DNA of 35,256 nucleotides from Thermoproteaceae archaeon (GTDB taxonomy: Archaea; Thermoproteota; Thermoprotei; Thermoproteales; Thermoproteaceae). The stretch is taken from positions 1 to 35,256 of the forward strand of contig JAJHRB010000008.1 in NCBI GenBank assembly GCA_020833025.1. The letters are read 5' to 3'. The notes beneath the pieces were generated by a model. That model was given only the letters and a program-made list of their open reading frames with translations, made no database searches and had not been told where the DNA came from. A program made the position numbers and the translations under genes. Shown here in pieces: positions 5,303 through 14,069 of the stretch (positions are counted from its first letter, which is position 1; each line of letters starts with the position of its first letter).

Positions 5303-6640
5303 ATGGCGTGGGAGGTAGTAGAGGCCGCCCTCGTCTCCTGCATTCTCGTCGGCTTCGTGGCGTTCGCGCTGATCTACGCGACACCCCTGCAAGGGCCTGC
5401 CGCGTACACCCCGCCCCAGCAGCCGCAGCTGATGAACCTGGCGCAGCAGGCGCTTGATCGCGTTGTGCTCGTCAACGGCAGGGTTTTCGCGAGGGATGGG
5501 GGCAGGTGGGCCGTCGCGGATCTCGCGCTCTCCGCGCCGCGCCCTCTCTACCAGCCGCAGATAGACGAGACGAAGCTCTCCCTCCTGCAGGCCCTCGCGG
5601 ACGCGGGGCCCGCCGGGCCCCTGTGCGCGATCAACCAGAAGGCGTTTGTCGACGAGACCGGGATAGAGAGGGCAATCCTTGTAGGCTTCGGCGTCTTGAG
5701 ACCGGCCAGCACGTCCGCGCATTTCGACTACGCCCGCATTCTCAGGAATTTCTTCGGCGGGGACTGGGATAAGTACGATATAGAGCTGGTAATAAAGCCG
5801 CTTGTTAACCTAACCATTTGTCCGAACGTGAGGGTTGCGGGCGTCGACATTACGCGGAGAGACCCCGTGTGCAGCAACGTGCCGCGGGGCAGGGTGTTTG
5901 TCAGGTCTACCGCCGGCGGCAGGGTGGTGGTTACCGGCATGCGTTGCGAAGTGAATGTTGGATGCGACGTCTTCTCGTACGACCTGAGCCTGACCTATGC
6001 AAACGGCGTGTGGCAAGCAGAGGTGCCGCTGCCTCCATCTGCGTACGCCGGGCTGGGCGACACGGCCGGTTTGGCGTTAATAGCGCAGAAGGTAGATTAC
6101 CCAAGGGCGTCTGATCTCTTTGTCTTCAACACGACTTCGCGGAGTTTAGCGTACGGCATGTACGGCCCGGACGGCAAGCTCTGGCTCCTCCACGACCACA
6201 CGGTGAGCTGCGGCACTGGCAGCACTCCGGCCCTGGGGATTAGGGAGCTCGATGTATACACTGGCGCCGGGTTCGTGACGCTTGTTAACGGTGCCGTGCT
6301 CGACCCCGGCGCCGGCGGAGGCAATGTTAAGGTAGATGCCTGCCAGTCGTGCACCAAAAACGCGAGGTGCGCTGCGTGCTGGGTCGAGCCGCCAGCTAAC
6401 GCTATTTTTGCTGTAGCGTGGGTCGAGCGCGAGAGCCAGGGCAAGAAAGACTCCGCCCCGCTCTCGGTCATGTTGCTGGTGCCGCTTGCGCCGGCGCAGC
6501 CCCGATCGGCCATCAGAATCGGCACGTGGCACCGCTGGACGCCGCGGGAGCCGGAGCTGCAGAGCGCGGTTGCCACGAGGATCGCGGACGGGCAGACGAC
6601 AACGTACCAGCTGCGGCTGGTCCTGTACAGGAGGCCGTGA
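5303..6640 (+). CDS. Pilin-like N-anchored surface protein (445 aa), gene 1 of pilus/adhesin operon
   Basis: N-terminal hydrophobic helix with early Glu (MAWEVVEAALVSCILVGFVAFAL), then a beta-rich, Cys-paired extracellular region. Confidence 0.75.
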   Translation: MAWEVVEAALVSCILVGFVAFALIYATPLQGPAAYTPPQQPQLMNLAQQALDRVVLVNGRVFARDGGRWAVADLALSAPRPLYQPQIDETKLSLLQALADAGPAGPLCAINQKAFVDETGIERAILVGFGVLRPASTSAHFDYARILRNFFGGDWDKYDIELVIKPLVNLTICPNVRVAGVDITRRDPVCSNVPRGRVFVRSTAGGRVVVTGMRCEVNVGCDVFSYDLSLTYANGVWQAEVPLPPSAYAGLGDTAGLALIAQKVDYPRASDLFVFNTTSRSLAYGMYGPDGKLWLLHDHTVSCGTGSTPALGIRELDVYTGAGFVTLVNGAVLDPGAGGGNVKVDACQSCTKNARCAACWVEPPANAIFAVAWVERESQGKKDSAPLSVMLLVPLAPAQPRSAIRIGTWHRWTPREPELQSAVATRIADGQTTTYQLRLVLYRRP

Positions 6641-7077: not shown

Positions 7078-10000
7078 GGGGCCAGCTCATATTGCTGACC
7101 GCGTTGGTAGTGGCGGTGGCCGTTGCGGCCGTAATAGCCGCTCAGATGGCGCTTAACATGGGCCAGTTCTCGTCCAGCGTCAGGACGGGCTACGGCATAT
7201 ACGCCAAGGCATGGCCGGAGGCCGTCGACCTGGCGGACTCCCACGCGCTGCAGGCGGCGCTCAAGGCCGCCTCGCAGATATCGGCGGGCGCGCTCTCGTC
7301 CGGCCTCTACGCGAGCCCCGCCAAGGCCTCAAGGTGGCTGACCTACAACGCCACGTACCTCTACCTCAACAGGTCTCTGGCGGTGGTCAAGGAGAACTTC
7401 CTCCCTCTCGGCGCCCAGCTGGACTTCAGCGTCCGCGTGCGCTACTACGGCTTCAACGGCACGCTGGGCCCCTACCCGCTGGCCGCGCCGCTCGGTAGGT
7501 GGAACATCGAGCCGCTCAGAAACGGCTACATGAGCATCCAAGGCGCTGACCTATACCGGATCGTCGCGGTCTGGCAGGCCCCCGACTACGACGGCTACTA
7601 CGCGGTCACCTACGGGGCGCACGTCTCCGAGCCCGGCGCCGTGGGCGAGATCTACCACGTCGCGCTCGGCGAGTTGCTGCGGAAGCTGAGAAACGCGAAC
7701 CCAGAGCGGAGCCTCTTTGTATTCTTAGTAGACAGCCAGACGTGCAGAATGTGGCAGCTCCCCTGGTGGGCAGAGATGGCGAAATGCCCGCTTTGTCTCC
7801 TGCACGTGCGGATACCAAGCAGGTCTGAGATAGGCGCTAGCGAGCCTGTGCTGCAGGGCGGCAAGGCCCTGGAGTTGCTGGCGGTCCTCACGCCGAACTA
7901 CGTAGGCGACTCTCTACCCGTCATCAAGTCCGGTCCCTGCGCGGGCGGCAGCGTGGAAACAGAACAGGTACCGCTGAACTTTGACATAAATAACAACCCC
8001 AAGGCAGTTTTTGCGCAGACCGTCGAATACAGCGGCCCCCGCCCCAGCCAATATTCAGGTTGGCTTTTCTGGGATGCCAGCGATATAGTTCAGTGGGCTC
8101 AGTCGACGGTAAGCACGACCAGCTCTTGCTACCCGGATCACCCGGTGACAGGCGGCGTCTTGTCCGCGGGCAAGAGCGTTGTTTACGACGCGGGCTTCGG
8201 GAGGGTTGCGGAGGTGTACGCCACCTATGACGGCGGCACGAAGAACTGGGCTTTCAACTTATACACAGGACCTGTGGCTCTCCCATCTAACTGGGCGGGC
8301 TTCATGGTTGAGGCCCTAGTTAGGCCCGCAGCCACAAATACCGTGCGCCCGGCTAGGCTGGATCTTTATTTCTACTCCTCCGATCCCGCCTCGACGCATC
8401 CCATATGTGCGAACTTTCTAGGCGTCCAAGCCGTGTGGCCGGTCTTGGTGTGGTCGAGCTGGAGGGGCCACCCAAACGGCGTCTGGAACGGCCGGACTTG
8501 GGATGACTCGGGTACTGTTTATTTCCAGACGTCGTGGTACCTCTTCTCGCTTGCCGCGTCGACAAGCGTTGTGAGGTATCAGGTGTTTTCCTACAACACC
8601 ACGAGGCCTCTGAGGGTCTTAGGGACAAAGACCCTTCAGGGCAATCCGTGGGGCACCACTTGGCAGTTCTACGTAGTTCTAGGGAGTGCCATTGTGGACA
8701 GCCCAGCAAGCGATCAGCCCTGGACTGAGAGCGCGAGGTATGCCTACGTGAGGGTGAGGCCGTGGGTTGACCCTCCCCCGGCTGTCATGTTTGGCTTCAT
8801 CTCTGGCGCGCCCGCCGTTAGGCCCAGCCGTGTGGATGTCGTCGCGGAACGCTCGGCCTCAGCTATGTCTAGCATAAACCTGACCGGCAGCATAGGCCTG
8901 GCGGGCGTGAGGGACTTGGTAATACGGAGAAGCATCTCCCTCAACGTCAGCGTGTTGGAGGCAGAGGCGGTGAGGGACGGCGCCAACCAGATCGCCTACC
9001 GGTACAGGATTGTGGTGAATTCGTCAGTGCCGAGGGGCTCCCTCGCCGCCTCGCTCACTCTCTTCTACAGCTTGGGCAGTAGCTACGTGAACTCCACGTG
9101 CCCGTCGCCGCTGTGTGAGGCCAACTTAATCGAGTACCGGGGCTACTCCCGCGGCGTCGACACCGCCGTATACGACGTGACGTTTACGGTGCCGGCATGG
9201 GCGAGCCACGCGCTCATAGTGAATGTGTTCGGCACAAAGGCCGCCGTGTCTGCCGCGAGGCCCAGGCTGTACGTCTTGAGCGCGGGCACAAATGCCTACT
9301 ACTTGATAAACGAGGGCGACGGCACGGCGGCATTCGTCGTGCCGTGGCGCCAAGACGGACCTTTGATCACAGGCATAAGCCCCGACGACGCCAAGTTCGC
9401 CGGGCTCTTTCACGTCACCGACGGGAGGGATAGATGGACTGTCCTTCTGGTGCCGCCGGGCTCCGTCGTGAGGGTGGTCACCGCCTCAGCCGTTGATGAC
9501 TGGCGCCAGTACCTAGTCCCGTGGCAGGCGGAGATGCTTACCTATACAGACAGTCCGTGCCCGGATCCCAGATACGTCCGCGTGTACTTCCCGGGCAACG
9601 TGACGCTTAGACGTTACTACGTTTTACTGCCATATCAACCCTCCACGGTGCCTAACGGTCATGCATTTCTCGGCGGCAGGTGGGCTTCTCTAGCTGTCTA
9701 CAGGGATCCTGCGAATATGCTGTGGCTGAAGCTCTCAACGTCGCAGCAATTAACCAACAAGGCGGTTCTCGTGGCGCTGTGCGGGACTGGAACTAACTCA
9801 CCGCCTTCGTCGTTTTTCGACTGGTACAGCCCCACGCCGTCTGGCGGCGCCTTGGAGTTCGCGTCGCCTCCAAGCCTCTCGACCTACCCCGACGGCTACA
9901 CCGTGGCGGTGTGGCACTCCGGCCCTATGAGCGTTGCTCTCCAGAACGGCACTGACTATCCACCCTGGAACTGTTATGAAGGCAGAAGAATTGTGGGCAT

Positions 10001-12296: not shown

Positions 12297-13190
12297 TCAG
12301 TAGTACCAGGTCAAGAAGTGCGCGTGCTCCGGCGGGTACCTTGAGAGAGAGTGCGCCTTGCACGCCTGCCTGAAGGGACACGCGGCGCACCCCGGCGACG
12401 CACGCGTGCAGACCCTGCGCCCGAAGTTCCACAGGTAATCGTCGAGAGCGAAGGGGTGAGCTCCGGCGAGCTCCGCGACGAGCCTCCACGCCCTCTTGAC
12501 CAGCTCCCTCAGCCTCACGTCCTCCTCCAGCGAGACCTCGACGCCGCTCTCAAGAAAGTCGTAGTTTATGTCGACTATCCCAAGCCTGTAGGCAACTCTC
12601 GTCAGGTGGTTGTCGACCGGCACGTCGGCCTCGTCTGCGTCCTTGAATTCGGCCAGCCCCCTCCCGTCGAGAAACTTTGCGAGCAGCAGTGCCTTCTTGC
12701 CGACGGGATCCTCGTAGGCCCTCAGGCCCCTCAGCGCCTCCCTCAGCCTCTTGATGGAGTCGAGGGGGACCAGCCTCTCGAACCCGCCGGAGAGCAGCGC
12801 CTTCCTGCCCGCGTCGCGCAGTAGGAGGACTCTCGCATTAAAGTCCCACACTCTCCTCCCGCCAATTGACAGCAAGGCCTCGGCCTCGGCCGGCGTCATC
12901 CTGGCGAGCCTCTCTGCGGTGAAGAGCCCCTTGTCGTAAGCAATTCTCCCCAGCCTGTAAAGCGCGTCCGCTCCGTGGTAGAACTCGCCGTCTATCACCC
13001 CCTCGAACGGCTCCCAGAGGCCGGTCCTGTGGTCGATCGCGACCATCGCGACGAAGTACGCGAGCTGGCTCTCAAGCGGGTCGTCGGGCGGGGGGTAGAA
13101 GCGCTGGTCCGAGTAGCTCTCGCGCCTAATCTGCAGCCCCCTCACTGCGGCCGCGACCGCCTCGGCCCTGTCAACGTCTATTGCTGGCAT
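12297..13190 (-). CDS. HhH-GPD-fold glycosylase/hydrolase-like protein with a C-terminal [4Fe-4S] loop (queuosine-salvage DUF2419-like motifs)
   Basis: YEDPVGKKALL and VPVDNHLTRVAYRLG motifs; C-x6-C-x2-C-x5-C (CTRASPGCAACPFRQAC). Confidence 0.75.
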   Translation of the reverse strand: MPAIDVDRAEAVAAAVRGLQIRRESYSDQRFYPPPDDPLESQLAYFVAMVAIDHRTGLWEPFEGVIDGEFYHGADALYRLGRIAYDKGLFTAERLARMTPAEAEALLSIGGRRVWDFNARVLLLRDAGRKALLSGGFERLVPLDSIKRLREALRGLRAYEDPVGKKALLLAKFLDGRGLAEFKDADEADVPVDNHLTRVAYRLGIVDINYDFLESGVEVSLEEDVRLRELVKRAWRLVAELAGAHPFALDDYLWNFGRRVCTRASPGCAACPFRQACKAHSLSRYPPEHAHFLTWYY

Positions 13191-13270
13191 CGCGAGACTC
13201 GCTGAGACCCCAATTTATGGCCGGCAGCGCGGGGCCGCTAGGGGGCTGTCTCGGGACCCGCCGCGGCCCA

Positions 13271-13302
13271 CCGCCGCTCTGACCGGGCTGAGCTACGGCG
13301 GC
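13271..13302 (-). tRNA. tRNA 5' half only (positions 1-30), identity uncertain (Met-e/Thr-like acceptor); candidate split tRNA or tRNA fragment
   Basis: GCCGCCG-TA-GCTC-AGCCCGGTCA-GAGC-G-GCGG gives the acceptor 5' strand, U8 A9, a full D arm with GG18-19, G26 and 4 nt of anticodon stem. TTATAAAG lies 20 nt upstream. No T-arm motif (GGTTCRA) in tRNA context was found in the window. Confidence 0.8.
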
Positions 13303-13322
13303 CAGGCTCCCCGGGAGGGGAA

Positions 13323-13330
13323 CTTTATAA
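13323..13330 (-). promoter_or_regulatory. TATA box upstream of the tRNA 5' half
   Basis: TTATAAAG on the minus strand, 20-nt spacer to G1 at 13302. Confidence 0.7.
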
Positions 13331-13382
13331 GCTTTCCGCGCCTGCGGGCCAAGCGTTAAAAGGTGAGCGCGCGGCGCCGCGA

Positions 13383-14069
13383 GTGAACTGCACGCTCCTG
13401 GTAGTCGACCTGGACGGGACGCTGACTCTCAGCCGCAACACGTACGAGCTCTCCCTCGAGGCGCTCGCGGCACTGAGGCGCGCGAGAGATGCGGGCATCA
13501 GGATCGTGCTCGCCACGGCGAACGGCCTGGACTTCGCGCTCACGGTCGCGCGCTACCTTGGAATAAGGGACGTGATTGCAGAGAACGGCTGCTTCGTCTA
13601 CCTCGACGGCAAGGTCCACGAGCTGTGCTCGGGCGATATGAGCGGGGTCGACAGGGCCGTCCTCGCGACGGGCGCCGTGGCCCCGAGCCCGCAGAACAGG
13701 TGCAGGAGGTACGACCTGGCGTACATACCGCTGGCAAGCAACGCGCTGGAGAGGGTCAGGGCGGCCGTCGGGCCCGGCTACGTCGTTGAGTTCAGCGGCT
13801 ACGCAATTCACGTGAGGCCCGGGGGCGTTGACAAGGGCTACGCCGTGCTGTGGCTGTGCAAGAGGCTCGGGATTCCGTGCCACAAAGTCGCGGCGGTGGG
13901 CGACAGCGATGTTGACGCCGGCATGCTGAGAGTAGCGTGGGGCATAGCGGTGGGGAACGCCTCGCCGGCGGCCAAGAGCGCGGCGCGCGTCGTTGTCGAG
14001 GGGCCGAGCGGCATCGGATTCAGCGAGGCGGTCGACTTGATACTCTCAGGCGCCGCCTGCACTCCCTGA
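13383..14069 (+). CDS. pgp: Cof-type HAD phosphatase (archaeal phosphoglycolate phosphatase family)
   Basis: DLDGTLT motif I, LATAN, DKG, GDSDVD motifs. Confidence 0.85.
   Translation: MNCTLLVVDLDGTLTLSRNTYELSLEALAALRRARDAGIRIVLATANGLDFALTVARYLGIRDVIAENGCFVYLDGKVHELCSGDMSGVDRAVLATGAVAPSPQNRCRRYDLAYIPLASNALERVRAAVGPGYVVEFSGYAIHVRPGGVDKGYAVLWLCKRLGIPCHKVAAVGDSDVDAGMLRVAWGIAVGNASPAAKSAARVVVEGPSGIGFSEAVDLILSGAACTP

Follow-up and report, generated by a model that had tools for sequence, protein, structure and literature searches.

Can a tRNA gene that breaks off after position 30 still give rise to a tRNA and, if so, to which one and with what partner? The locus that raises this question lies on contig C20 of a metagenome-assembled genome (G000; 1.56 Mb in 126 contigs, 62.6% GC, 93.9% complete, estimated contamination 0), within the 35,256 nucleotides that were analysed here and are called the window; all features of the half gene are read from its minus strand. 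The 32-nt 5′ exon (13271–13302, with G1 at 13302 and position 30 at 13271) comprises the acceptor 5′ strand GCCGCCG, U8 and A9, a D arm of the form GCUC/10-nt loop/GAGC, G26, and G27–G30; it has 32 rather than 30 nt because of two additional D-loop bases, and in four relatives the tRNA-Asn genes begin with an identical sequence (100%). The box AAAGCTTATAAAG (13323–13335), 20 nt upstream of G1, is a predicted BRE/TATA-type promoter element, and a AAAGCTTAWAAA-type box stands at equal spacing before other tRNA genes and tRNA pieces of the genome. After G30 the tRNA pattern is lost and the sequence turns into GC-rich UGGGCCGCGGCGGG... An earlier note on this DNA had described the box, the spacer, the tRNA geometry and the switch as we find them and had read the element as half of a split tRNA. 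Our analysis leads to the same reading: the element is very probably the independently transcribed 5′ half (positions 1–30) of a trans-spliced tRNA in a population of Pyrobaculum, a hot-spring archaeon, although judging from the joined sequence its product would be tRNA-Asn(GUU) and not the Met-e/Thr-like tRNA that had been suggested.

Neither ARAGORN nor Rfam (at gathering and permissive thresholds) reported anything tRNA-like in the window, as is expected of a half gene, and the window holds no 3′ half, as had already been stated; a second copy of the 5′ exon is absent from the G000 assembly. The exon is followed by a trailer (13244–13269, minus strand) that pairs with the leader of the 3′ half in cofolding, and no oligo-T terminator was found after it. 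GGGCCGC (13269–13263) can pair with GCGGCCC (13238–13232), as the earlier note had pointed out, but the 5′-half transcript folded alone gains no stability over shuffled sequences (z = 0.09), so this local hairpin carries no weight.

The partner was sought in a genome-wide scan for T arms with an acceptor 3′ strand behind them, using a loose T-arm pattern; a stricter T-loop pattern misses it. Only two T-arm matches in the genome end in CGGCGGC, one belonging to a complete tRNA-His and the other to an orphan 3′ half on another contig, at G000:C74 5727–5845. Read from the sequence, this half has a TATA box at C74 5728–5737 and a leader at about 5751–5781, which pairs with the trailer of the 5′ half and contains GCCG (5776–5779), then AU, then G31 at 5782. 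Its exons, which cover positions 31–76 in all, occupy 5782–5796 and 5815–5845 and are separated by an ordinary 18-nt bulge-helix-bulge (BHB) intron at 45/46 (5797–5814) that also occurs in relatives; they encode the anticodon loop CUGUUAA, the T arm, the acceptor strand CGGCGGC, the discriminator G, and a CCA that runs to 5845. The forecast of an orphan 3′ half in which G-Y-Y-G plus 2 nt precede positions 31–73 ending in CGGCGGC was thus borne out, with GCCG plus AU in the predicted place. TATA-type boxes lie 20–25 nt upstream of the transcript start of each half, and promoter activity is predicted for both. The composition of C20 matches that of C74, and because both halves sit inside their contigs, they must be at least 19 kb apart.

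Cofolding of the trailer (13269–13248) with the C74 leader gives 21 base pairs with one bulged C and two G-U pairs, and three further pairs form beyond an A/A mismatch (trailer to 13244). The partner leader does therefore complement the trailer as anticipated, but mainly in its distal part and not through GGGCCGC alone. The duplex is worth −44.5 kcal/mol, compared with −22.2 ± 3.4 kcal/mol for shuffled leaders, and C74 is the only site in the genome that complements the 18-nt trailer core with at most one mismatch. Over all pairs of 5′ and 3′ tRNA pieces the Asn trailer and leader show the longest complementary run (18), and the next best run for the C74 leader among the pieces is 10.

In a hand-built BHB, C25 G26 G27 C28 of the exon (CGGC, 13273–13276, minus strand) pairs with GCCG of the leader (C74 5776–5779) to form the central 4-bp helix between the 3-nt bulges GG|U and AU|G, with the trailer/leader helix directly after it; the 5′ splice-site bulge, G29 G30 | U (13270–13272, minus strand), would be cut between 13271 and 13270. 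The junction at 30/31 is unambiguous, because the stem needs G29, G30, and G31, of which the 5′ piece provides two and the 3′ piece one. Unconstrained cofolding settles in a shifted register that pairs the bases of the 5′ bulge (−103.9 kcal/mol); keeping the bulges unpaired by constraint gives −94.6 kcal/mol. On the exon side the outer helix is limited to about 2 bp, and the central helix draws on C25, the partner of G10 in the mature D stem, for which reasons we class the 30/31 motif as a relaxed BHB. This assignment is based on homology to cis introns and not on energy: throughout the family, the cis introns of tRNA-Asn at 30/31 all have the same arrangement of CGGC and G-Y-Y-G plus 2 nt followed by G31, and the same layout is also found in 30/31 introns of other tRNAs in the genus.

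When the 32-nt exon is joined in silico to C74 5782–5796 and 5815–5842, the resulting 75 nt fold into a canonical cloverleaf with all stems intact, which ARAGORN assigns as tRNA-Asn(gtt) and which is identical at 74 of 75 positions to the intronless tRNA-Asn gene of the congener G005. No other GUU anticodon arm or Asn tRNA gene was found in the 94%-complete assembly, and standard tRNA finders would report this genome as being without tRNA-Asn. The catalytic subunit of the splicing endonuclease is encoded on C61 (Pfam) and the RtcB ligase on C60; a structural (second) endonuclease subunit was not found in G000 with Pfam models. RtcB is one 961-aa open frame (G000:C60 4614–7331) whose Pfam match is divided by an insert of about 1.36 kb, probably an intein.

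A route to the mature tRNA is proposed in which transcription, annealing, cleavage, and ligation of the halves are inferred from the established archaeal BHB splicing pathway. Two RNAs would be made, one from 13302 downwards and the other from the 3′ half on C74. Trailer and leader would anneal over 21–24 bp, while the acceptor strands (7 bp) and the anticodon-stem strands would pair as well, which would create the BHB at 30/31 with CGGC/GCCG between its two bulges. The splicing endonuclease would then cut both bulges and RtcB would join G30 to G31; the 45/46 intron within the 3′ half would be removed likewise, and the CCA end is gene-encoded.

A protein-based scan named the relatives of this organism as Pyrobaculum, in agreement with the Thermoproteus/Pyrobaculum-like genome envisaged earlier, and identified one of them (G015) as Pyrobaculum sp. 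WP30 (CP012158.1). Across the family, tRNA-Asn is intronless in G005 and G002, has introns elsewhere only in G017 and in two genomes of genus g2, carries a cis intron at 30/31 in G007, G016, and seven genomes of the sister genus g3, and is split at 30/31 in G000 and WP30. G017 is probably P. calidifontis, G005 P. arsenaticum, G007 P. islandicum, and G016 P. neutrophilum. The WP30 halves lie on one strand, 3.7 kb apart (G015:C1 862944–866745); a T6 run closes the 5′ half, and the 3′ half comes with a separate box and a matching leader that is unrelated to that of G000. A 1043-aa open frame with no Pfam family lies between them. In metagenome contigs that carry a split of the WP30 type, only about 1 kb separates the halves. 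A metagenome scan for the G000 5′ exon together with the start of its trailer gave no match, and a second metagenome scan returned the WP30-type split only. Because the trailers differ, as does the orientation of the tRNA to the neighbouring HAD block, the splits in G000 and WP30 look independent, and tRNA-Asn was apparently split twice.

The genes around the two halves offer a view of how the split in G000 could have come about. Divergent from the 5′ half is a HAD-family hydrolase gene (13383–14069, plus strand; Pfam), the first of a block that extends to about 19.5 kb and marks the ancestral tRNA-Asn locus: the block adjoins the whole tRNA-Asn gene in five congeners, and its arrangement in G017 is that of G000. 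Downstream of the 5′ half lies a gene of 297 aa with a weak AGOG-like match (12297–13190, minus strand; Pfam) and an ATAAAT box of its own at 13218–13213, the orthologue of which is found about 1.2 kb after fumA in four of the five congeners. In G000, fumA is instead directly followed by the tRNA-Asn 3′ half. It extends 7 codons beyond the stop point of the P. calidifontis-like gene, and its TAA stop falls inside the TATA box of the 3′ half (G000:C74 5712–5737), thus placing the rearrangement junction at the very end of fumA. About 87 kb separate fumA from tRNA-Asn in G017, where they occupy opposite strands.

We infer from this synteny that an ordinary 30/31 intron, still in cis in congeners, was broken by one chromosomal inversion. 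Breaks inside the 30/31 intron and between fumA and the AGOG-like gene, which now marks one of the inversion junctions, would give exactly the two junctions seen. The inversion is supported at two of three testable adjacencies only, since the rpiA side is without synteny: the DNA after the 3′ half has no match in the 20-kb tRNA-Asn loci of five congeners, including the region downstream of the tRNA. G017 has three small genes between fumA and the AGOG-like gene; one of them maps to C26 of G000 and the other two were not found in the G000 assembly, and for this reason more than one rearrangement may have occurred.

Scans of G000 for orphan 5′ and 3′ pieces suggest that Asn is one of about 15 split tRNAs. 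The other candidates are Trp, Lys(UUU), Arg(UCU), and Met(CAU); Thr(UGU) and Thr(CGU), with one 5′ half in common; Leu(UAG, CAG, GAG, CAA), built on two 5′ pieces; Gln(UUG, CUG), for both of which no 5′ piece was found in the G000 scan; and Lys(CUU) and Thr(GGU), the halves of which are about 290 nt apart. These roughly 14 further tRNAs are distributed over C13, C19, C28, C31, C34, C46, C74, C81, C88, C89, C91, C100, and C102. For 11 of the 13 other orphan 3′ pieces, the 5′ piece that fits best by trailer and leader also has the matching acceptor strand, an agreement that does not depend on the pairing criterion; for Lys(CUU) and Thr(GGU), simple pairing by the longest run did not select the adjacent 5′ half. 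Splicing in silico was carried out for Asn, and the other split tRNAs are predictions from their pieces.

The class II tRNA-Leu seems to be split in the D region, with the 6-nt AGGGGC on both sides of the junction; its 5′ pieces lie on C89 at about 44350 (+) and about 55050 (−), and its 3′ pieces on C89 at about 48540 (+) and about 53520 (−), on C102 at about 3206 (+), and on C34 at about 22760 (+). We consider it reasonably probable that no tRNA gene set seen so far is as fragmented as that of this Pyrobaculum population, in which some 15 of roughly 46 tRNAs would come from separately transcribed pieces, including the first split class II tRNAs (four tRNA-Leu on two shared 5′ pieces) and Thr isoacceptors with one shared 5′ half, and in which both inversion junctions of tRNA-Asn can still be read. 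If this genome-wide pattern holds, standard finders miss about a third of the tRNAs of G000.

Two arrangements were noted beside these candidates. The orphan 3′ halves of Arg(UCU) and Met(CAU) diverge from one short intergenic region with back-to-back TATA boxes (C13, about 7250–7330). Two intact tRNA-Ser genes each have a partial 3′ copy about 10.5 kb away on their own strand, tRNA-Ser(GCU) at G000:C12 559 and 11379 (+) and tRNA-Ser(CGA) at G000:C17 107 and 10532 (minus-strand positions), a layout that is the pattern of att sites around integrated elements.

Could the two Asn pieces be something other than halves of a working gene? The earlier note had itself allowed for a relic or an integration scar, and neither gains support from an exon that is unique, pieces that are undamaged, and a partner that is present. 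With the assembly 93.9% complete, both pieces might be decaying relics and a working, intact Asn copy might reside in the unassembled 6%; this is quite unlikely, given that the pieces have stayed within one position in 75 of the congener's working gene with their stems intact, that each has kept a promoter box at tRNA spacing, that the 21-bp complement of trailer and leader has been preserved with G-U changes only, and that about 14 other tRNAs of the genome are laid out likewise. A partial tRNA copy that an integrated virus or plasmid left at its attachment site would have a precedent in the att-like tRNA-Ser copies. Those scars, however, repeat the 3′ part of an intact gene that lies on their own contig, whereas the 5′ exon studied here is without a duplicate, retains the ancestral promoter side and the synteny of the HAD block, and is flanked by housekeeping genes; its trailer also matches a leader elsewhere, for which a scar would have no need, and we regard such an origin as extremely improbable.

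The halves might instead be the two ends of a single transcription unit that an extremely long cis intron interrupts, an idea with some backing in WP30, where they share a strand at a distance of 3.7 kb; C20 and C74 may lie in any relative order and orientation. This reading is very unlikely: such a unit would have to span at least 19 kb of DNA that carries genes, a correctly spaced TATA box precedes the 3′ half, and opposite strands are expected for the two halves under the inversion model. Even in WP30, a T6 terminator closes the 5′ half, and the 3′ half is preceded by a box of its own. We also give hardly any credence to a mixed-strain bin, in which the halves would belong to distinct members of the population and no single cell would contain both. 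The genome was assembled from a metagenome into 126 contigs, and disrupted tRNA genes that are heterogeneous within a natural population have been described previously (PMC3293823), but the estimated contamination is 0, C20 and C74 are alike in composition, within the bin trailer and leader fit only one another, and the missing half occurs on neither contig.

The reading that we favour is accordingly a tRNA-Asn that would be assembled in trans from C20 and C74, and it can be set beside the split tRNAs described so far. These enter into the debate on tRNA origins, in which an initial state of two half-genes is set against later fragmentation. All five Pyrobaculum genomes sequenced by 2011 lacked trans-spliced tRNAs, and the largest number of split tRNAs per genome was six (Chan, Cozen and Lowe 2011, PMC3218864); the known split tRNAs as listed in 2015 include none for Asn, and no class II tRNA is split among them (Kanai 2015). 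In the literature searched, which left most subscription journals outside, we found neither a later report of a split tRNA in Pyrobaculum or of a split tRNA-Asn nor a report of the one in WP30.

Caldivirga maquilingensis, with its split and tri-split tRNAs (Fujishima et al. 2009, summarised in PMC4390854), resembles G000 as a free-living crenarchaeon of the Thermoproteales with halves at separate loci, with leaders and trailers that pair and form a BHB, a predicted one in G000, where relatives carry a cis intron, and with pieces common to isoacceptors, as seems to be the case in G000 too. Its six split tRNAs are of the isotypes Gly, Glu, and Ala, whereas G000 is a Pyrobaculum with a tRNA-Asn divided at 30/31 and apparently about 15 split tRNAs. 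Nanoarchaeum equitans (Randau et al. 2005, also summarised in PMC4390854) likewise has separate half genes with GC-rich complementary trailers and leaders, joined by splicing endonuclease and ligase as is proposed for G000, but it has the reduced genome of a symbiont from an unrelated lineage, its split tRNAs are iMet, His, Lys, Gln, and Glu, and only G000 can be compared with relatives in which a cis intron occupies the split site.

The split tRNA-Asp and tRNA-Lys of the Desulfurococcales (PMC3218864) are similarly sporadic and lineage-specific, were judged to be recent and derived from introns, and include halves that lie close together, as in WP30; G000 differs from them in genus, in the Asn isotype, and in that both rearrangement junctions are still readable from synteny. 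The cis BHB introns of Pyrobaculum and Thermoproteus (Sugahara et al. 2008; Fujishima et al. 2010, both cited in PMC3218864) share with the proposed G000 motif the non-canonical site 30/31, the CGGC/G-Y-Y-G helix, and the spacing of 2 nt, and their intervening sequence begins in a similarly GC-rich manner, but they are hairpins of 17–35 nt within one gene, whereas the arms in G000 would be on different transcripts and form a helix of 21–24 bp.

One genus thus shows a single tRNA site in three states, without an intron, with a cis intron, and split, the last apparently reached twice independently. In G000 the neighbouring genes suggest that one inversion ran through the intron, and they so support a late, rearrangement-driven origin of the split; if this is true, tRNA-Asn would be a direct example of an intron turning into a split gene. 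Since no trans-spliced tRNA was present in the five earlier Pyrobaculum genomes (Chan et al. 2011), the organism could serve as a natural model, and it may offer a natural system in which to study trans-splicing, the sharing of tRNA halves, and the protection against integrating elements that has been proposed for split tRNA genes.
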